64,000 nt of DNA from Shigella phage ESh24. Below the pieces are notes generated by a model. That model saw nothing but the letters and a program-made list of their open reading frames with translations, ran no database searches and was not told where the DNA came from. The position numbers and the translations under genes were made by a program. Below are positions 26,484 to 33,902 of the stretch, in pieces. Numbering within the stretch: position 1 is the stretch's first letter; each line of letters begins with the position of its first letter. The DNA lies in sequence record ON528734; one strand, given 5' to 3'.

Positions 26484-26566
26484 TTTTAATAAAGCTTCTG
26501 TCCATAAAGATAAGAAGAAAGCGTTTAAAGAATCTAATCGCAAACAGAAACATAAGGGGAAGGTCT

Positions 26567-26846
26567 ATGATTATTGATTCTCAATCTGTGGTTCAATATA
26601 CAATCAAAATTGATATTCTAGAAAAGCTATATAAGTTTTCTACCAAATTTATACCATTCAATTGTTAATGAATTAGTTGAAGAATTACATCTTGAGAATA
26701 ACGATTTCTTGATTGGAACTTATAAAGACCTCTCAAAAGCAGGATATTTTTACGTAATTCCAGCTCCAGGAAAAAGTATTGATGATATATTAAAAACTAT
26801 AATGATTTACGTCCATGATTACGAAATTGAAGATTATTTCGAATGA
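26567..26846 (+). pseudogene. arn: arn-like acidic ORF interrupted by a +1 frame break
   Basis: ATG 26567 with RBS AAGGGGAAGG; frame stops after 33 codons at 26666-26668 while the +1 frame continues 60 more codons to TGA 26844-26846; combined about 92 aa. Confidence 0.4.
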
Positions 26847-26995
26847 GTCATAATCTTGAAAAGGTAATCGAGCACAATGTAGCTCAGGAACGTGAGTCGT
26901 TCAAGGAATTCGTAGAAAAAATTTTTGAAGAAAATAACACAGACCAGTTTACAAATCAAGCGTCTGATGATATTATAACAAAGTCAACTAATTGA
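26843..26995 (+). CDS. hypothetical small acidic protein
   Basis: 50 codons immediately upstream of asiA. Confidence 0.35.
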   Translation: MSHNLEKVIEHNVAQERESFKEFVEKIFEENNTDQFTNQASDDIITKSTN

Positions 26996-27007
26996 GTGGT
27001 ATAGTTA

Positions 27008-27280
27008 ATGAATAAAAACATTGATACAGTTCGTGAAATTATTACTGTTGCATCTATTTTGATTAAATTTTCCAGAGAAGATATTGTTGAGAATCGTGCT
27101 AATTTTATTGCATTTCTGAATGAGATTGGAGTAACGCATGAAGGTAGAAAGTTAAATCAGAATTCATTCCGTAAAATTGTTTCTGAATTAACCCAAGAAG
27201 ATAAGAAAACCCTCATCGACGAATTCAACGAGGGTTTTGAGAGTGTATATCGATATCTAGAGATGTATACGAACAAATAA
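27008..27280 (+). CDS. asiA: anti-sigma70 factor AsiA
   Basis: 90 aa MNKNIDTVREIITVASILIKF...; matches T4 AsiA as recalled. Confidence 0.9.
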   Translation: MNKNIDTVREIITVASILIKFSREDIVENRANFIAFLNEIGVTHEGRKLNQNSFRKIVSELTQEDKKTLIDEFNEGFESVYRYLEMYTNK

Positions 27281-27937
27281 TTATTTAGCCCTTCCTAATA
27301 TTCTGGCCGCCTGAGCACATATTGATTCAAGGCGGTCATTACTTATATGATCATTTCTATACCAGTACATGGTTATCGTTCCAGCATAGATATTATCCAA
27401 ATTAAAATATGGACAACTGTACATGTAGTTTATTTCGGGAGTAGGCTTTTTAGTTGGTAAAAAAGCAAATTTTGAGTTGGAATAATAATGACGTCCATTT
27501 AAATGAACTATATATTCATCCATAGTTTTATCAACAGGATATCCTCCAAGTGATTTTTCACTTATTGTTGAAGGTAATTTTCCTTCATATGCTATAATAT
27601 CAACAAAATAGTTTAAGTTTTTAGGGCGGAAAGAATACACCGCACTAAAGTCTGCCTCAGATGATATATGAACTATCTGGAGTTGTTCCAGGGCGACAGA
27701 TTCAAAGCGTGCATTTCTTTCCTTTTCAATAATTTCACTGTATGTTTCATACTTTGATTGCTTATAGTACTCAAAGAAACTATCTCCCCTATACCAAACA
27801 ATCGCCATTATAAACAAAAGAATTACGACAGCTACCCGGGAAGCAAGAACCTTCCCGGTAGCATTATCTTTGAACAAGCGATCTAGAACACCCAACAGAA
27901 TATCAGAGGGCGAAAATGATATTCTAGGTGCTGCCAT
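27281..27937 (-). CDS. t: holin T
   Basis: 218 aa with single N-terminal TM and large periplasmic domain; T4 t length. Confidence 0.9.
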   Translation of the reverse strand: MAAPRISFSPSDILLGVLDRLFKDNATGKVLASRVAVVILLFIMAIVWYRGDSFFEYYKQSKYETYSEIIEKERNARFESVALEQLQIVHISSEADFSAVYSFRPKNLNYFVDIIAYEGKLPSTISEKSLGGYPVDKTMDEYIVHLNGRHYYSNSKFAFLPTKKPTPEINYMYSCPYFNLDNIYAGTITMYWYRNDHISNDRLESICAQAARILGRAK

Positions 27938-27955
27938 AGACCCTCCTTTTAAGGA

Positions 27956-27963
27956 TATTTATA
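27956..27963 (-). promoter_or_regulatory. late promoter TATAAATA for t
   Basis: plus-strand TATTTATA, about 20 nt upstream of t start. Confidence 0.55.
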
Positions 27964-27982
27964 TGCTGAGAGGTATTACCAT

Positions 27983-28762
27983 TTAAATCCAGGAACCATA
28001 GATCGTGCCTGTTGCACCCCATGATGGCGAAGAACCGAATACCGCTCTACCTGGAGCACCACCGCCGGATCTAGATAAGTGATTACCCCATCCATCTCCA
28101 CCCCGACCTCCAGCATCACCGCCATTGCCACCGCCAAATTGACTTGTATTACCACCGCCGCCTGGACCGTCATAACTAGCATTGCCACCAGGCCAATTAA
28201 CACCACCGCCACCGAGACCAAATGGTCTGCCACCGCCACCACCAGCTGTAGCATACGCGTCCCAGCTATTCTTTAACGACACTGCACCACCGCCACCGCC
28301 GCCTGATGCAATAACGCCATAGTTCCAAATGCGGAGTCGTCCACCAATATCATTTTGGATTACGTCGCCACCATTAGTGCCTGGGCTTCCATTTACGCTA
28401 CCATTACCACCTCGGCCCCACATATGAACACCACCATGAATATTCAAAGTAACATATTCGTTAGGAGTATCACCATACATGAAGAATAAAGGAACGTCTT
28501 TAGAATATGATACTAAGTTGCCTGTGATATTAAACACTATAGGAGCGCCACCGGCTTCAAAACAACGGTCACGGAACCATTGACCATTAAAGTTATGGTC
28601 TGCTCCAAGAGTGTGAATAATTTCTCTTGAACGTCCAGCGAATTGTGACATCCAAGATGGGTTCCCTAGACGTAATTCTCTAGAAGCTGCTGACATCCAA
28701 CGTTGACCTGTTTCAGCCACTGCTGATGTTCCAATCCAACCAGGTATTCCTACTACTGCCAT
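27983..28762 (-). CDS. 38: gp38 receptor-recognising adhesin (T2-type, glycine-rich motifs)
   Basis: 259 aa; conserved N-terminal region then poly-Gly blocks ([30 protein letters not shown]) separating variable segments. Confidence 0.8.
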
Positions 28763-28773
28763 AAAAACCTCCA

Positions 28774-28789
28774 GGGCCCGAAGGCCCTT
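28774..28789 (-). terminator. hairpin between genes 37 and 38 (attenuator-like), immediately before the gp38 RBS
   Basis: AGGGCCCGAAGGCCCT in the 30-bp gap between gp37 stop and gp38 start. Confidence 0.45.
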
Positions 28790-28792
28790 TTA

Positions 28793-31700
28793 TTATTTTA
28801 TCAATGATTTAATTAATGCTTTCAACTCAGCAATTTCAGATTTCAATTCCTTGATTTCGTCAGTATGCTCGTTGATAGTGGCAGTATTTAAACCAATAAT
28901 ACCGTTATAGTTCAAACGAAGCAGTCCGGTCTCTTTATCTTCAGAAACAAGTTCAGGAAATACTTTTTGAACTTCCTGGGCGATTAAACCGGCGGACGGT
29001 TTAACTTCATCAGTAACGGGGTTTTTAAGCAGATAAGTATAACCACCTAAGAGTTTAGATTTCTCTTGTGCGTTATCGATAAGCTTAATTTCCGATTTAC
29101 AACGAATATCAGAACGAATATAAACGTCGTTAACGTCAATGTTATCGCGAACATACATACCGGCGTTACAGTGGAAGTTAACGTTACTAAAGGTCTGGGC
29201 CAGCCCAGCTCGAATACTGAATACACCTTGACCATTAGCATACATGTTGTAGATGCCATCGCTTTCCCAGACCAATCCAGTGTCATTGTCACCAATTGCT
29301 ATGCATGGCGTAGACCAAGCGGGTTCAATACCTACACCAATACCCGCCCAACCGGAAACAATTCTTCCTGGGGAAGTAAACTGCCCGTTGGCCAAAAATT
29401 GATAAACCGCTGCAGGATGTCCTTGTTCTGGTGTATTTTCAGTTGAACGAACAATTATACAACCGGTACCCCAACCTGCGGTACCTGAACGTAAAGTACC
29501 TAGCTCTACACTTGTGTTATATCCATACCCCGTTGAAGAACTTCGTCCTTTAATAATAGGATAGTACACATTCCCGTTTAATTCGCCATGTTCTACAAAT
29601 ATAGGAGCTTCAAGGTTATATTGTAGGCTAATCATACCTGAGTTTTGAGAGACCCATCTTGTAGCATTAACGTACATACGGTTTTCACTCATTTGAACCA
29701 AGCCAAAAGCGCTTGGGCTAAATGTAATGGCGCCAGCGTCATTCAAATCAATACCGGTTGTTGTTTTATAGTTGTAAAAAGATACTGTGTCAGATTGGCC
29801 ACCTTTACCAACAAACCAACTATTAGCACCACCAACTTCTGAACGAATATGCGAACTATTAATTGCATTAGGTGCTCTAATTACTAAAGCATCATCGGCC
29901 GCAGCAATAGTTAATTTTCCGGTCATCGTATCGCCTTCTTTGGCAATACGAGTAGCTATTGCATCGCGAATATTTGTAATGTCTCCTGCTGAAGTAAACG
30001 TTTTCCAAATATCCGAGAAAATATTACCATTACGAGCAATAGCAGCTTCGCCACCGCCGACCAGAACGTTATCGGGAAAATTAACGGTACCATCGGCGTT
30101 AAATCTTGATGTATGGCCTTGTGAACCATCTTCTTTGATATGGTGTAAAACAAATGTACCCGAATTAATTTCAGTACCTAAAGACCAAACAGCTTTACTG
30201 TTTAAAAACTTCTGTTTAACAATAGGATAATATTTACTTACTGCGTCATCATCGATTTCCTGGAAAATAGGAGCTGCTTGAACATATTGAATATCATAAC
30301 CACCAGCGCCCGCGCCGTGACCAGTAAATTTAATATAACCGTTTGCTGCGAACGTATTGTAACTTGATTGTAAATCTGGAATAGTAACTTTACCAGTATC
30401 TAAAGCCATACTAAACGGGCGAAGTGGACCGATATCGCCGTGTTTACCTTCACCGTAAGCAGTTGGAATAATATGAAGACTACCTTCTGAACGTCTAAAA
30501 ATGGCTCCATAATCTGCGTTCCAAATACGAAGCGCATTCACTGCTCCAGATGAAATTTCACCTGTTGTGTGAACTCCTCTATCTCCAGCAGTAACACCAG
30601 ATGATTCAAATGAACCATTAACGTTCATTTCTACTTCGCCAGTAGTAAGTCTTTGAATATAGCTCATCCAGCTAGTTGCATCAGAAATTTCCATAATGTT
30701 TTTACGGATACCTCCGCTTGGATCAACAAACGTATTACCCCAAACTTTAATATCCATATTATCAACCGAGCTGTATCCTGTTGTGTTGCCTCTAAACATT
30801 AGTGTAGAAGAATTATTTCTACCATCTATATTAACAGAACCGCCAATAACGTCAATATTACCAGGAGTAACTAACAAACCGCCGTGAGTATTAATGTTTG
30901 TAGTACCCTTACCGCGGAAATAATGATGATAATTACCACCTTGATAATATCCTAAAAGAGTTTGACCGTCGCCGTATGCGTTATTATCGTGGTATGTTAC
31001 TACAGTAGCAAGAGCATAGTTTTCTGTCGGTGGCGTTGTCATAAGAATCCCATCCGGAGAATAACCCATAACCATTTTTCTAAGGCTTTGTGTTTCCGCA
31101 GGACCGTAAATGAAAGTTCTTGTTCCGTTGTTTACTGTATGAAAATATCCGTCCTGGTGCCATTTTAGCCCGGTATCATTATCACCAAGAGCAATCGAAG
31201 CAGTCCCTAATTCAGAATATCCTTTAGAGCCACCCGGAAGACCTATAGAAATAGAATGGCCTGCTTTCAATCCACCGGCCCAGTTAAACGACCAAAGATA
31301 AGTGTCTAAGCCATCTCCGGAATACCAGGTTATTCCGTCATTAACATTAACTTCGTGGAAAATACCTGCTCCTACAGCATTTCGCATAACACGTAGGTGG
31401 TTAATAGCCGTTTCGCCTTCTGCCATTGGAGTGTTATTTGATAATGAATAGATATCATAATCGCCTGTCTTCTTCCCGTTTGTAATAACTTTGTCGGTCA
31501 GAATTTGTGGAGACGAAATAGATTTCCATGCTGATACTTCAGGTGAAGTAAATAGGCCACTGCCTGAAAATGCATAAGTGCTTTCGCTACCAGCGGCGTA
31601 GTCTTGAACCCTGATATTAAGTACTTGTGTAGTTAAACCATCATTAGCCGGGGCATAAATGATTCCACGTTCGCGACTATTGCCATCGAAAAAACGAACA

Positions 31701-32059
31701 TGCGCTGTACCTGAACTTTTTGTAATAAGTTCTCCGCCTTCAGTCATAATCTGCCCAGCAGCAATAATATCACGAGTTACTCGAGCAATACCAGTTAAAT
31801 TAAAATTACCAGTCTGGGTGAATGTACCGTTTAAAGTATAATCACCAGTTTGGTTATAATTGCCTTTATGAATAACATTCCCGTCAATACTACCGCCTTT
31901 AGCAAAACCTAAATCAATAATATTTCCCTGGTCATCTTTAGTAAAAAGTACACGGTCTTTTAAGTTTATAGCCAATTCACCTTCGGCTAATACTGAAGCA
32001 GCTGGACGTTGACCTGCCGTTTTGCTTCTTTTAAATTGTATTTGTTTTAAAGTAGCCAT
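28793..32059 (-). CDS. 37: long tail fibre distal subunit gp37 with C-terminal intramolecular-chaperone-like domain
   Basis: 1088 aa; conserved N-terminus MATLKQIQFKRSKTAGQRPAAS; C-terminal SDIRCK...coiled-coil tail. Confidence 0.9.
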   Translation of the reverse strand: MATLKQIQFKRSKTAGQRPAASVLAEGELAINLKDRVLFTKDDQGNIIDLGFAKGGSIDGNVIHKGNYNQTGDYTLNGTFTQTGNFNLTGIARVTRDIIAAGQIMTEGGELITKSSGTAHVRFFDGNSRERGIIYAPANDGLTTQVLNIRVQDYAAGSESTYAFSGSGLFTSPEVSAWKSISSPQILTDKVITNGKKTGDYDIYSLSNNTPMAEGETAINHLRVMRNAVGAGIFHEVNVNDGITWYSGDGLDTYLWSFNWAGGLKAGHSISIGLPGGSKGYSELGTASIALGDNDTGLKWHQDGYFHTVNNGTRTFIYGPAETQSLRKMVMGYSPDGILMTTPPTENYALATVVTYHDNNAYGDGQTLLGYYQGGNYHHYFRGKGTTNINTHGGLLVTPGNIDVIGGSVNIDGRNNSSTLMFRGNTTGYSSVDNMDIKVWGNTFVDPSGGIRKNIMEISDATSWMSYIQRLTTGEVEMNVNGSFESSGVTAGDRGVHTTGEISSGAVNALRIWNADYGAIFRRSEGSLHIIPTAYGEGKHGDIGPLRPFSMALDTGKVTIPDLQSSYNTFAANGYIKFTGHGAGAGGYDIQYVQAAPIFQEIDDDAVSKYYPIVKQKFLNSKAVWSLGTEINSGTFVLHHIKEDGSQGHTSRFNADGTVNFPDNVLVGGGEAAIARNGNIFSDIWKTFTSAGDITNIRDAIATRIAKEGDTMTGKLTIAAADDALVIRAPNAINSSHIRSEVGGANSWFVGKGGQSDTVSFYNYKTTTGIDLNDAGAITFSPSAFGLVQMSENRMYVNATRWVSQNSGMISLQYNLEAPIFVEHGELNGNVYYPIIKGRSSSTGYGYNTSVELGTLRSGTAGWGTGCIIVRSTENTPEQGHPAAVYQFLANGQFTSPGRIVSGWAGIGVGIEPAWSTPCIAIGDNDTGLVWESDGIYNMYANGQGVFSIRAGLAQTFSNVNFHCNAGMYVRDNIDVNDVYIRSDIRCKSEIKLIDNAQEKSKLLGGYTYLLKNPVTDEVKPSAGLIAQEVQKVFPELVSEDKETGLLRLNYNGIIGLNTATINEHTDEIKELKSEIAELKALIKSLIK

Positions 32060-32067
32060 AAGTCCTC

Positions 32068-32724
32068 TTAATAATAGCCGAAATCTTGAACAGAATCCTT
32101 AATTACGATTTGGTCAAATCGCGGAACATGCGAGGGTTGAGATGCAGGATTCTGTGAAAAAAGGTTTGGCGCAGTTAAATTTCCTGTCATAGTGTCTCCA
32201 GAGCGTAATACTCTAGAGTTTGCATTTGTTGTAACAATATTTATTGCCCCATCAACATAATCTTTTCTCGTAAGGTCATAATTATTTACTGGTGATAACG
32301 AAGTTGCGCGTATTTGTGATGCTTCAATTACACCCTTTGAGCTAATATCTCCGTTTCGTGTGTTAATTACTACAGTTCTACCTGCTGCCCCTTGTGATGA
32401 TTTAAAGCCGATACCATACCATGAAACAATATCCATATTTGTAGTATCATATGTAGCATTATCACCAGGACCGGCAAAAATACCGTTGTCACCTGACCCA
32501 GCACCAGGAACAGTCATTCCTTTATTAAAAATTACTTTATTTAAATATGTACCACCATTAGCTTTAGAAACGAAATCGTTATCAGCAGCTTGTGGTTTAT
32601 TATATTCTGAATATATTTTAAATGATTTATAGAGTACATCGTCACCGGCTGGATTCAATGGAAAATTTCCTTGATGCCAAATGACAGAGCCTCCAGTTGT
32701 TGAACCTACTTTTAAATCAGCCAT
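32068..32724 (-). CDS. 36: long tail fibre distal connector gp36
   Basis: 218 aa, position between 35 and 37. Confidence 0.85.
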   Translation of the reverse strand: MADLKVGSTTGGSVIWHQGNFPLNPAGDDVLYKSFKIYSEYNKPQAADNDFVSKANGGTYLNKVIFNKGMTVPGAGSGDNGIFAGPGDNATYDTTNMDIVSWYGIGFKSSQGAAGRTVVINTRNGDISSKGVIEASQIRATSLSPVNNYDLTRKDYVDGAINIVTTNANSRVLRSGDTMTGNLTAPNLFSQNPASQPSHVPRFDQIVIKDSVQDFGYY

Positions 32725-32747
32725 TGTATGCCCCTTTATTTTAATAG

Positions 32748-32755
32748 TATTTATA
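32748..32755 (-). promoter_or_regulatory. late promoter TATAAATA for genes 36-37-38
   Basis: plus-strand TATTTATA about 25 nt upstream of gene 36 start. Confidence 0.6.
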
Positions 32756-32763
32756 AAGAAAAA

Positions 32764-32781
32764 GGGAGCCCGAAGGCTCCC
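32764..32781 (-). terminator. terminator hairpin after gene 35
   Basis: GGGAGCCCGAAGGCTCCC. Confidence 0.6.
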
Positions 32782-32786
32782 TCAAT

Positions 32787-33902
32787 TTAAACTTCTCTAA
32801 ATTCTTGCCCAAACACTTTACCAGTTTTAGACGATGCTTGTGTAGGAAGTACCATTATATCTGGAGGTGAAGCAGATTCGCAGATATAATTAACTCGAAT
32901 GCCATTAACGCCAAACTCTGCAGGTTTTGAAATGCCACCATTTCTTGACACTTCAGAAAAGCTTAAATTTCTCATACCGCCTTGACCCGCTTGTGCAGTT
33001 CTCTGTGCGTATATCGTAAATCCTACTGCATTTTCAGGAACAACTACATAATCTTCCTTTAACTCCCAAGACCCAGCTTGCCCAGTAAACTCAGCTTGGG
33101 TAGAGGAAATATATCCATTCGACGCATTATAAAAACGAATTGAAATATTAGTAGTTCCCAACGCTAATAAATCAGCATCAGCATATAGTTGTGCTTTAAG
33201 ATAAAGAACATCTCCAGGAATTAAATTATAGTCAGAAAGTTTACTTATTGCAGATGCTGTAGGTAGACGTGCAATTTCGTTATTAGTTCCACCAACAGCT
33301 GACATAAATTGCTCAACGCTTTCATATGTTCTTTTAGGAAATCCTGTCGCTCCAACATCTTCTAAACTATCAAATACTACGTCTAATATAGTTTGATAGT
33401 CATCTGTGCTTTTTCTGTTACTCAGTTTAACATGCTCTAATGCGATAGCTCTTTTAGAAGAAGTGTAAAAGGCAGCATATGATACGTCAAATCTTGACAA
33501 TAAAGAATCAGATGGAAAAGCAGATGTTCCTGCCGTTCTTAACCAAGATACTACTTCAGGAGGAAAATTAACCTTTCCGCTAGTTAATATGGCAACAAGT
33601 CTATTGCTTGAAAAAGAATTCATGAAACTAACAAAAGCAGCAGATGTTGTATCATTTGAAGTAGAAAAAACATATGACTTACTATCAACCAATGCTCCCG
33701 TGGAAGGGTCAAAAACTCTTAAATGAAGACCTGCACTAAATGTTTGACTTCCTACAGGATTATCTTGAAATTTAACATAAGGCCCTGCGGTAGAAAGCGG
33801 GCAAGAACCCGCTATACTTATTTTATATCTTACTGAATTACTTTCCGATAAAAATGGCGTTTGGACATATCCTTGTCCAAACTCTGCCATAAATTTTTCC
33901 AT
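32787..33902 (-). CDS. 35: long tail fibre hinge protein gp35
   Basis: 371 aa, position and length match T4 gp35. Confidence 0.85.
   Translation of the reverse strand: MEKFMAEFGQGYVQTPFLSESNSVRYKISIAGSCPLSTAGPYVKFQDNPVGSQTFSAGLHLRVFDPSTGALVDSKSYVFSTSNDTTSAAFVSFMNSFSSNRLVAILTSGKVNFPPEVVSWLRTAGTSAFPSDSLLSRFDVSYAAFYTSSKRAIALEHVKLSNRKSTDDYQTILDVVFDSLEDVGATGFPKRTYESVEQFMSAVGGTNNEIARLPTASAISKLSDYNLIPGDVLYLKAQLYADADLLALGTTNISIRFYNASNGYISSTQAEFTGQAGSWELKEDYVVVPENAVGFTIYAQRTAQAGQGGMRNLSFSEVSRNGGISKPAEFGVNGIRVNYICESASPPDIMVLPTQASSKTGKVFGQEFREV

Follow-up and report, generated by a model that had tools for sequence, protein, structure and literature searches.

The receptor-binding module at the long-tail-fibre tip of Shigella phage ESh24: a chaperone-ended gp37, a T2-type gp38 adhesin of probable OmpF specificity and a conserved hairpin between their genes

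Introduction

What forms the receptor-binding end of the long tail fibre of Shigella phage ESh24, how might it be assembled, and which outer-membrane protein would it recognize? We analysed these questions in a 64,000-nt stretch of DNA (the window), for which a first-pass annotation had listed a glycine-rich gp38 of the T2 type, a gp37 that ends in a chaperone, and a hairpin between the two genes. The sequence features listed there are all present, at coordinates that are exact or off by 1-2 nt, and both Pfam and solved homologues support its description of the protein pair. Very probably these genes specify the tip by which the long tail fibre of a T2-type T-even phage binds its receptor; this applies to the identity of the parts and to the assembly mechanism alike. 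How such modules work (self-cleaving chaperone, glycine-core adhesin, modular exchange) was known before and is textbook material for T2-type phages.

Results

Gene order and late transcription

By comparison with GenBank, the two proteins are identical to URY13098.1 (gp38) and URY13099.1 (gp37) of Shigella phage ESh24, a Tequatrovirus. The genes and late promoters of the module are as follows.

32748..32755, minus strand: T4-type late promoter TATAAATA upstream of gene 36, an exact consensus match
28793..32059, minus strand: gene 37, precursor of the long-tail-fibre distal subunit gp37, 1088 aa, 117.0 kDa (open reading frame with double stop TAATAA)
27983..28762, minus strand: gene 38, T2-type long-tail-fibre tip adhesin gp38, 259 aa, 26.2 kDa (open reading frame; stop codon at 27983-27985)
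27956..27963, minus strand: late promoter TATAAATA between gene 38 and holin gene t, a consensus match

Gene 38 sits directly downstream of the gene for the chaperone-bearing gp37 and upstream of holin gene t, and the order 37-38-t is common to 10 annotated relatives. The intergenic gap between genes 37 and 38 measures exactly 30 nt (28763-28792), the length first reported for it. Against INPHARED, from which ESh24 itself is absent, the best DNA match to the module is only ~90% identical, and the best protein match 97%. Overlapping open reading frames within gene 38 (e.g. 27976-28254 on the minus strand and a proline-rich one at 28182-28322 on the plus strand) were set aside as by-products of the GGN/CCN codon repeats.

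The promoter upstream of gene 36 is the likely start of a 36-37-38 transcript, judging from its consensus match and its context. No exact late-promoter consensus was found between this promoter and gene 38. A late promoter of gene 38's own was considered and rejected; the nearest site, TTTAAATA at 28885-28892, lies 130 nt upstream and carries one mismatch. The annotation of phage fPS-2 has a predicted late promoter at the same position between genes 38 and t.

The C-terminus of gp37 is a predicted self-cleaving chaperone

Three Pfam domains are found in gp37 (Peptidase_S74, Gp34_trimer and gp37_trimer), and its best full-length relative is the PhAPEC2 protein (89.6% identical). Two features mark its C-terminal end.

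28796..29113, minus strand: gp37 intramolecular chaperone, residues 983-1088, 11.8 kDa (Peptidase_S74 match, S16 alignment)
28796..28888, minus strand: C-terminal heptad-repeat (coiled-coil-type) helix of the chaperone, residues ~1058-1088 (a/d register, ~4 heptads)

The last 106 residues had been described as beginning with SDIRCK, ending in a coiled coil and resembling the self-cleaving intramolecular chaperones of other phage fibres, and each part of this description was borne out. SDIRCK starts at residue 983 and leaves exactly 106 residues, the last ~28 of which show a clean a/d heptad pattern that is also conserved in S16 gp37. Peptidase_S74 (PF13884) matches residues 983-1038 at 5e-12 (46.4 bits, cut-off 22), and the match begins exactly at the Ser of SDIRCK. 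The S16 structure (PDB 6f45_A) matches residues 914-1088 at 3e-30 and the 106 chaperone residues alone at 7e-22; there is also a weak match of the chaperone to the homologous MYRF autoprocessing domain 7dc3.

The ESh24 sequence DVYIR^SDIRCK aligns with the cleavage site of S16, DLNVS^SDRRIKK (S16 site from PMC7917993). In nearly every related locus with a readable gene, the protein of the upstream fibre gene carries an S-D-x-R-x-K motif 92-117 residues before its C-terminal end, and S983 and K988 are invariant in nearly all fetched T2-type gp37s and in S16, the sole exception (L002) being out of register. Autocleavage of gp37 is predicted between R982 and S983, with S983 and K988 as the dyad within SDIRCK. 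Endosialidases have the catalytic Ser at the cleavage site and a Lys five residues downstream, and S983 and K988 show this spacing. Cleavage of gp37 has been demonstrated for S16 (Dunne 2018, as cited in PMC7917993), as it has for the gp37 proteins of T2 and T6 (Drexler 1986, cited in PMC3157838).

gp38 has the sequence and fold of a T2-type tip adhesin

Two parts of gp38 can be told apart.

28637..28762, minus strand: gp38 N-terminal attachment domain, residues 1-42 (Pfam Gp38_N)
28031..28417, minus strand: gp38 glycine-rich specificity region, residues 116-244 (poly-Gly runs, GC peak, homology to 9v85 and 6f45)

The T2-type gp38 family was defined by two Pfam models (PF05268 and PF21721) at their curated thresholds, and gp38 matches both: GP38 at 8.8e-82 (274.6 bits) and Gp38_N at 8.1e-21 (74.2 bits), each with a cut-off of 25. 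PHROG 2056 ("tail fiber protein; host specificity") matches at 9.5e-109. Because the solved homologues, PP01 gp38 (PDB 9v85, 5.7e-74) and S16 gp38 (6f45_D, 5.8e-50), match at E values of 1e-50 to 1e-74, the fold can be regarded as fixed.

Runs of at least four glycines occupy residues 154-159, 174-178, 184-187 and 201-204, in agreement with the four poly-Gly blocks and the 259-aa length noted at first, and there are two further GGG runs. Glycine makes up 39% of residues 116-244. The DNA of this region contains direct repeats of the GGCGGTGG type and reaches a GC content of 0.57, as against roughly 0.3-0.4 in flanking windows. In an alignment of gp38 homologues (A1), columns of invariant Gly alternate with variable stretches, a pattern that fits the polyglycine-II sandwich with hypervariable loops seen in gp38 homologues (PMC12892980). 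Pfam, the PP01 and S16 structures and the alignment thus agree with the first-pass view of a T2-type adhesin whose Gly blocks bound variable loops. For T2 itself, the gp38 adhesin and gp37 processing were established experimentally (Drexler 1986, as cited in PMC3157838), and the same holds for S16 (PMC7917993).

W9, W22 and W37 of the N-terminal domain are invariant in the same alignment, and the N-terminal segment of gp38 co-varies with the type of gp37 tip and chaperone. The Trp "prongs" of S16 gp38 dock on the tip of gp37 (PMC7917993).

From these observations we infer an assembly route of five steps. Genes 36, 37 and 38 would share a late transcript begun at the TATAAATA promoter that precedes gene 36. 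The 1088-residue gp37 would be aided in trimerisation by its own 106 C-terminal residues, and the chaperone would then excise itself between R982 and S983, with S983 as the nucleophile and K988 as the base. The exposed DVYIR tip would be capped by gp38, which may dock via its N-terminal tryptophan domain (W9, W22, W37). Presented on the polyglycine-II core, five gp38 loops would then face a protein of the outer membrane, for which the porin OmpF is the likeliest candidate.

The gp38 of ESh24 probably recognizes OmpF

Receptor loops A-E have been defined on the PP01 crystal structure, and we transferred them to ESh24 by pairwise alignment. The global alignment with PP01 diverges at loops D and E, where the mapping is unreliable, and placement is firm for loops A-C only. 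Two of the loops figure most in the comparison.

28382..28399, minus strand: receptor loop A, residues 122-127, SVNGSP (mapped from PP01 loop A, W119-I124; PMC12892980)
28247..28276, minus strand: receptor loop B, residues 163-172 (mapped from PP01 loop B, Q161-V170)

The C-domain of gp38 groups with OmpF-dependent adhesins, which places it in the OmpF-specific clade. Over residues 101-259 it differs at 9-12 positions (~94% identity) from the adhesins of AlbertHofmann/Bas47, FL33, FL31, fPS-2, fPS-90 and RB51, all of which need OmpF (PMC8594841, PMC12032242, PMC7917993, PMC3157838), a requirement backed by complementation in PMC8594841. Overall identity to gp38 of T6 (Tsx) is 65% and to that of T2 (FadL) 52%. 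Published trees place receptors by clade, and the receptor is predicted by gp38 phylogeny (PMC12032242). The view that the receptor cannot be predicted from sequence was therefore too cautious: it is largely predictable, since six OmpF-requiring phages share essentially one near-matching allele. On this comparison, ESh24 gp38 most likely binds OmpF; the assignment is probable, not certain, because mutations in the gp38 hypervariable region shifted the specificity of Ox2 and the loops A, B and D of ESh24 differ from those of the OmpF-proven allele.

Nine differences from that allele are constant (ESh24 residue first): S122T, S126N, K164Q, D168A, A169P, Y170N, G199A, G203A and N205Y. Seven of the nine fall in loops A, B and D, of which the mapping of D is unreliable. 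Loop A departs by S122T and S126N. Loop B, with K164, D168, A169 and Y170, is unique: this combination is absent from the 13 other full-length members of the cluster and from all fetched phages. Loop C does not differ from that of the OmpF allele, and most OmpF-proven phages have an identical loop E segment. In A, B and D, with seven changed positions, the loops are not identical to those of a characterised OmpF adhesin.

We think that the nine substitutions are probably fine-tuning to variants of the host porin. It is possible, though clearly the less probable reading, that the loop changes, chiefly those in loop B, have retargeted gp38 to another porin or to a divergent OmpF or OmpC allele of the host. 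The concentration of differences in the PP01-defined loops and the singular loop B speak for such a change, as does the report that gp38 hypervariable-region mutations altered the receptor specificity of phage Ox2 (Henning's group, as cited in PMC12892980). ESh24 was moreover isolated on Shigella (PMC9686686, which carries no receptor data), and the papers searched gave no receptor data for ESh24 or for its sub-allele mates VR5, UGJNEcP3 and UPEC01, of which VR5 and UGJNEcP3 have the closest gp38s (96.9%). Against retargeting, however, the ~94% identical allele uses OmpF in E. coli and Yersinia hosts and in three phage genera, loop C and the loop E segment are preserved, and receptors sort by clade in the published trees. 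OmpF recognition with adjusted loops is the reading that we retain.

A conserved hairpin precedes the gene 38 initiation site

The gap between genes 37 and 38 contains two elements.

28773..28788, minus strand: C(UUCG)G hairpin, 5'-A GGGCC UUCG GGCCC U-3' on the mRNA strand (pattern scan, folding)
28768..28772, minus strand: Shine-Dalgarno (SD) sequence of gene 38, GGAGG, 5 nt before the ATG and abutting the hairpin

The hairpin, at -12.3 kcal/mol, consists of a UUCG loop on a stem of six base pairs, five of them G-C, and reads A-GGGCC-CGAA-GGCCC-T on the plus strand. The order on the coding strand is gene 37 stop, hairpin, GGAGG, 5 nt, AUG. The first-pass annotation had placed the hairpin one position away, at 28774-28789, and called it terminator-like and attenuating for gene 38; its location directly before the gp38 ribosome-binding site stands, and the regulatory role does not.

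Pairing is preserved in 100% of 17 distinct T-even junctions, including T4, and three of the six pairs show compensatory changes. None of 500 shuffles reached the observed covariation score. Some distant phages with gp38 have no hairpin, and their genes 37 and 38 overlap as TAATG. A search of 26500-33500 against Rfam (E<=1) gave no family at the hairpin and one sub-threshold SraG match elsewhere. Folded over 91 nt, the junction region shows no unusual stability (z = -1.16) and so gives no support for a larger structure or for sequestration of the SD. Three further UUCG hairpins in the window directly precede an SD and have A-rich 5' flanks; the "hairpin-then-SD" arrangement has four examples in the window.

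The hairpin is a conserved T-even RNA element of the 37/38 junction, with, at about an even chance, a role at the level of the message and not as a transcription terminator. Its most likely action would be to organise or insulate the gene 38 initiation region, to stabilise the mRNA, or both. In T4, the hairpin that occupies this position is documented to enhance translation of gene 38 (PMC3014915), by a mechanism that is not directly transferable because the T4 layout differs (SD, hairpin, AUG).

It is doubtful that the hairpin serves chiefly as an intrinsic terminator on the plus strand, antisense to genes 37 and 38, where it would stop early or antisense transcription that extends from asiA across t and 38 into the late fibre genes. 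On that strand TTTTATTATTTT comes after the stem; its T-tail score, 3.9-4.4, exceeds those of the other homologous junctions, and there is no other plus-strand terminator-like site between the asiA stop (27280) and the hairpin; A-rich 5' flanks are shared by the three other SD-adjacent UUCG hairpins. The terminator look of the element is confined to this strand. The tail is only moderately conserved, however (median 2.84, and about 0.9-1.0 in the three relatives L063, L064 and L069), and its A-richness may simply reflect stop codons and an A-rich spacer.

A leaky intrinsic terminator on the coding strand, lowering transcription of gene 38 relative to gene 37, for example for a 3:1 gp37:gp38 stoichiometry, is quite improbable. 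The stem-loop is G+C-rich and stable (about -12 kcal/mol), as in an intrinsic terminator, a U5 run starts 6 nt past the stem, the pattern scan lists the site on the minus strand, and a lower output would fit the description of gp38 as a monomer on the gp37 trimer (PMC12032242). The stem is followed directly by GGAGG, however, within the tail GGAGGUUUUU, and since the hairpin abuts the SD without an adjacent U-tract it makes a poor terminator on this strand. The T-tail score is 0.31-1.18, whereas the genuine UUCG terminator of this operon, between genes 35 and 36, scores 3.71, and other sites in the window with a hairpin and a U-tract score 3.1-4.3. Relatives have 0-3 U after the stem and then the SD (median sense-strand score 1.7), terminator-like matches in the stretch occur at chance level (5 found, 4.0 expected), the gene 38 initiation site is optimal (GGAGG, 5 nt, ATG), and the T4 hairpin at the same position raises expression (PMC3014915).

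We also consider it unlikely, if worth stating, that either or both of two wider ideas hold: that the hairpin belongs to a bidirectional "hairpin-then-SD" class of T-even elements, and that loop B has been retargeted from K-12-type OmpF to a porin variant. The bidirectional hairpin would halt early antisense transcription in one direction and set the gp38:gp37 output in the other.

Significance

The gp38 of ESh24, a "hypothetical protein" in GenBank, can with confidence be renamed the long-tail-fibre tip adhesin, with a probable OmpF specificity. The OmpF assignment helps in combining phages with different receptors in cocktails against Shigella or E. coli, and the differences in loops A, B and D make up a compact natural set of mutants for the tuning of gp38 to porin variants. 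The value is mainly in annotation and practical phage work; the module biology was known before, and no open question is advanced.

Comparison with known systems

The closest characterised system is AlbertHofmann (Bas47), whose gp38 has the same length and architecture (95.4% overall identity) and whose gp37 chaperone type and hairpin sequence match those of ESh24. All glycine motifs are identical in Bas47, FL33, FL31, fPS-2, fPS-90 and RB51; the adhesins of this group are set apart from ESh24 by the nine constant substitutions and by its unique loop B.

PP01 gp38 (PDB 9V85) is the best solved homologue, at 5.7e-74 over residues 40-258. PP01 binds OmpC of O157 (PMC12892980), and in loops A, B, D and E its sequence bears no relation to that of ESh24. 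S16 (PDB 6F45) resembles ESh24 in its gp37 tip and chaperone with the S-D-x-R-x-K cleavage motif and in a gp38 that combines an N-terminal Trp attachment domain with a beta-helix and a polyglycine-II sandwich (PMC7917993). Its gp38 is far more distant than that of PP01 (5.8e-50 versus 5.7e-74), with different loops, and S16 uses OmpC (PMC12892980). The S16 chaperone has 113 aa as compared to 106 aa in ESh24, and the residue before the cut is Ser in S16 and Arg in ESh24.

T4 has a C(UUCG)G hairpin at the same 37/38 position with a near-identical stem (GGGGC UUCG GCCC). There the SD lies 5' of the hairpin, in the order GGAG-hairpin-AAAU-AUG, and folding cuts the SD-AUG spacing from 22 to 5 nt (PMC3014915); in ESh24 the SD follows the hairpin and is normally spaced, and the junction is not a "split" initiation region of the T4 gene 38/25 type. 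The downstream gene 38 products of the two phages are unrelated. The idea that ESh24 gp38 is merely an assembly chaperone or "catalyst" absent from the virion, as T4 gp38 is, can be dismissed in spite of the GenBank label "long tail fiber assembly chaperone/catalyst" on several close homologues: T4 gp38 has no detectable similarity to it (BLASTP E 0.14), the ESh24 protein has strong homology to adhesins that sit on the fibre tip and have been crystallised, and the T4 RefSeq note states that T2-type gp38 is unrelated to T4 gp38 and is the adhesin.

Among phage fibres and endosialidases, the Peptidase S74 family (PF13884) has its domain at the extreme C-terminus of a trimeric fibre, as in ESh24 gp37, whose predicted self-cleaving domain showed no departure from the family.

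Organization of the 37/38 locus

The two proteins are identical to entries of Shigella phage ESh24 (gp38, URY13098.1; gp37, URY13099.1), a Tequatrovirus of 167,086 bp from a sewage-derived Shigella phage panel whose describing paper holds no receptor data for it (PMC9686686). URY13098.1 is labelled 'hypothetical protein' in the GenBank record. Genes 36, 35 and 34 lie upstream of gene 37, and the features of the region are:

27281-27937, minus strand: holin gene t (Pfam Phage_holin_T, 4.6e-117)
27956-27963, minus strand: late promoter TATAAATA, between gene 38 and t
27983-28762, minus strand: gene 38, 259 aa
30 nt, minus strand: spacer between genes 37 and 38
28793-32059, minus strand: gene 37, 1088 aa
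32755-32748, minus strand: late promoter TATAAATA, immediately after the 35/36 terminator
32783-32762, minus strand: intrinsic terminator of the 35/36 gap, UUCG tetraloop, GAGGGAGCC-UUCG-GGCUCCCUU followed by UUUCUU

Because a late promoter follows the 35/36 terminator, the fibre genes form two late units, 34-35 and 36-37-38. Gene 52 and several ORFs, the last a 90-aa ORF at the T4 asiA position, converge on t from the plus strand; they are named by synteny with T4 and T2 and by reading of the sequences. A hairpin with a 14-bp stem (AAAACCCTCG...GAGGGTTTT; 27206-27238, minus strand) lies just past the t stop codon and within the 3' end of the ORF at the asiA position; the late t transcript may stop there, within the gene that converges on t.

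The gp38 adhesin

Matches to Pfam GP38 (8.8e-82) and Gp38_N (8.1e-21), to PHROG 2056 ('tail fiber protein; host specificity') and to the solved adhesins of PP01 (9v85, 5.7e-74) and S16 (6f45_D, 5.8e-50) confirm the first-pass annotation of gp38 as a T2-type glycine-rich adhesin. The four glycine runs of at least four residues that it listed are at residues 154-159, 174-178, 184-187 and 201-204; there are two further GGG runs, and glycine makes up 39% of residues 116-244. The DNA of this part reaches 57% G+C, as compared to roughly 30-40% in flanking windows, and is rich in GGCGGTGG-type direct repeats. Inside gene 38, several ORFs of 46-92 aa overlap on both strands of 27976-28322; these Val/Ala-rich or Pro-rich frames are by-products of GGN codon repeats, not genes. 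The gp38 encoded here has no similarity to the T4 gp38 chaperone (E 0.14); the label 'long tail fiber assembly chaperone/catalyst' that many close homologues carry is therefore a legacy mis-annotation, taken over from that unrelated T4 protein.

An alignment of gp38 with T2, T6, RB51, JS98 and others shows no change at W9, W22, W37 or in the glycine motifs, and variable sequence in between. Henning's group and Trojet et al. (PMC3157838) described this alternation of glycine-rich motifs with hypervariable segments, which crystal structures account for by a polyglycine-II sandwich presenting loops (PMC12892980).

The C-terminal domain of gp37

From the start of SDIRCK at residue 983, gp37 runs for exactly 106 residues, and its end is coiled-coil-like, with hydrophobic residues at a and d positions over the last four heptads, both as first read. 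Pfam Peptidase_S74 covers residues 983-1038, its first residue falling exactly on S983 (5e-12). Searched by itself, the 106-residue tail hits the S16 gp37 construct (7e-22) and, weakly, the autoprocessing domain of MYRF, a eukaryotic domain known to be homologous to it. Almost all PHROG matches to the tail reach the end of tail-fibre profiles or stop no more than about 15 positions short of it. In the window, DVYIR^SDIRCK aligns with the S16 cut site DLNVS^SDRRIKK (PMC7917993). Nearly all T2-type gp37s fetched keep the S and K of the motif. At nearly every gp38-encoding locus with a readable upstream fibre gene, some with only about 40% gp38 identity, the product of that gene carries an SDxRxK-type motif 92-117 residues before its C-terminus.

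The Peptidase_S74 match and the S16 alignment argue for the intramolecular chaperone proposed earlier, and self-cleavage is predicted to yield a mature gp37 of 105.3 kDa and a released fragment of 11.8 kDa. Knowledge of C-terminal processing of T2 and T6 gp37 goes back to Drexler et al. 1986 (cited in PMC3157838), and the same prediction has been published for fPS phages (PMC7917993).

Probable exchange of fibre modules

Comparison of window positions 28637-29130 with 23 related loci (L001-L023) revealed three co-varying elements: the gp37 tip and chaperone type, the sequence of the 37/38 hairpin, and gp38 residues 1 to about 46. They fall into three groups (window/VR5/JS98/Bas47, RB51/FL31 and T6/fPS/FL33), while an OmpF-type gp38 C-domain is common to all three and to Tequatrovirus, Mosigvirus and Dhakavirus. 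This distribution implies that a recombination joint lies where the Gp38_N domain ends, which fits the finding that PP01 gp38 works on T2 gp37 only with a T2 N-terminus (PMC12892980).

The nearest relative of the window gp37 is that of Mosigvirus PhAPEC2 (89.6%), and a collection of 15 billion proteins holds only one other sequence within 90% of it; around gene 37 the genome shares about 95% identity with Tequatroviruses, ECP52 and EO1 among them. These identities point to exchange of the distal fibre gene between genera, a mosaic pattern already described in general terms (PMC3157838).

Receptor prediction

The closest gp38s are those of UGJNEcP3 and VR5 (96.9% identity).

Identity of other gp38s to the window gp38, with reported receptors
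AlbertHofmann/Bas47: 95.4%; Bas47 OmpF-dependent, with complementation (PMC8594841)
AugustSocin: 95.0%
fPS-2: 91.9%; OmpF and LPS core (PMC7917993)
FL33: 91.1%; OmpF (PMC12032242)
fPS-90: 90.0%; OmpF and LPS core (PMC7917993)
FL31: 87.6%; OmpF, effect weak (PMC12032242)
RB51: 86.9%; OmpF, with FhuA and LPS core (PMC3157838)
T6: 65%; Tsx
T2: 52%; FadL

One receptor-domain allele (TVNGNP / SLQNSWAPNATA / YDAPGGAGYTSQF) is common to Bas47, FL33, FL31, fPS-2, fPS-90 and RB51. Nine constant differences set the window apart from that allele (S122T, S126N, K164Q, D168A, A169P, Y170N, G199A, G203A and N205Y), 7 of which are in loops A, B and D as defined on the PP01 crystal structure, so its loops are not literally identical to those of a characterised adhesin. 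Loops A and D recur in a minor sub-allele (VR5, UGJNEcP3 and UPEC01) for which the literature searched gave no receptor; the 10-residue loop B is absent from every other sequence examined.

The view that the receptor cannot be inferred from sequence was too pessimistic, since six near-allelic phages need OmpF and gp38 phylogeny predicts the receptor (PMC12032242). OmpF is the best prediction, and probably the correct one; doubt is left because hypervariable-region mutations in Ox2 gp38 changed receptor specificity (cited in PMC12892980).

A conserved hairpin between genes 37 and 38

The junction sequence, as mRNA, is UAA UAA AA-GGGCC-UUCG-GGCCC-U-GGAGG-UUUUU-AUG. The hairpin A-GGGCC-NNNN-GGCCC-T noted earlier is present and adjoins the GGAGG of gene 38, at 28773-28788 and not 28774-28789. 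We sampled 23 loci, 45 more distant ones and T4. At this junction almost all T-even-type phages have a G+C-rich stem-loop of 5-8 bp, in which the loop is usually UUCG (−10.6 to −16.4 kcal/mol), with a Shine-Dalgarno (SD) sequence 0-8 nt after it. Among 17 distinct junction sequences pairing was 100% of 96 cells, and 3 of 6 stem pairs changed on both sides (A-U/U-A/G-C, G-C/A-U and G-C/C-G). None of 500 shuffles reached the observed covariation score, and shifting partners destroyed pairing; the hairpin structure is thus under selection.

In several distant gp38 phages (L040, L046, L051, L055, L061 and L065-L067) the intergenic hairpin is absent and gene 37 runs into, or right up to, gene 38 (TAATG, TAAATG). 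In L048-L052 a GGGGC/GCCCC hairpin has the gene 37 stop codon within its loop or next to it.

CTTCGG occurs 31 times in the whole window, against 13.0 ± 3.6 expected (reached in 0/100 shuffles), and about ten copies lie in G+C-rich hairpins (4525, 14684, 19966, 20195, 22622, 28773, 32762, 58464, 58567 and 62483). These UUCG hairpins form two classes, one followed by a U-tract and one placed immediately ahead of an SD/ATG, with an A-rich 5' flank and a terminator-like opposite strand. The 37/38 hairpin is a conserved intercistronic C(UUCG)G element; on the best-placed reading, which has about an even chance of being right, it would act on the message by insulating the initiation region, stabilising the mRNA, or both. 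A less likely alternative is an antisense terminator: the terminator look of the hairpin is on the plus strand (GGGCCCGAAGGCCC-TTTTATTATTTT, T-tail score 3.9-4.4), antisense to genes 37 and 38. Attenuation of gene 38, as first suggested, is not supported: GGAGG follows the stem and the sense-strand T-tail score is 0.31-1.18, against 3.71 for the canonical 35/36 UUCG hairpin with its U-tract and 3.1-4.3 at other hairpin-plus-U-tract sites in the window (scores modelled on the d'Aubenton-Carafa scheme), so that a poor terminator of the 36-37-38 transcript is predicted. Terminator-like matches in the region are no commoner than chance (5 found, 4.0 expected).

Comparison with known systems

The corresponding T4 hairpin separates the SD from the AUG and is reported to raise gene 38 translation by cutting their spacing from 22 to 5 nt (PMC3014915). 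The T4 SD is 5' of the hairpin, whereas that of the window is 3' of it at optimal spacing, so the T4 mechanism does not apply as such. What interest is left is modest: a loop allele that is distinct in the OmpF clade, and the role of the conserved 37/38 hairpin; the module itself is an ordinary host-range module of known kind, in an already deposited phage.
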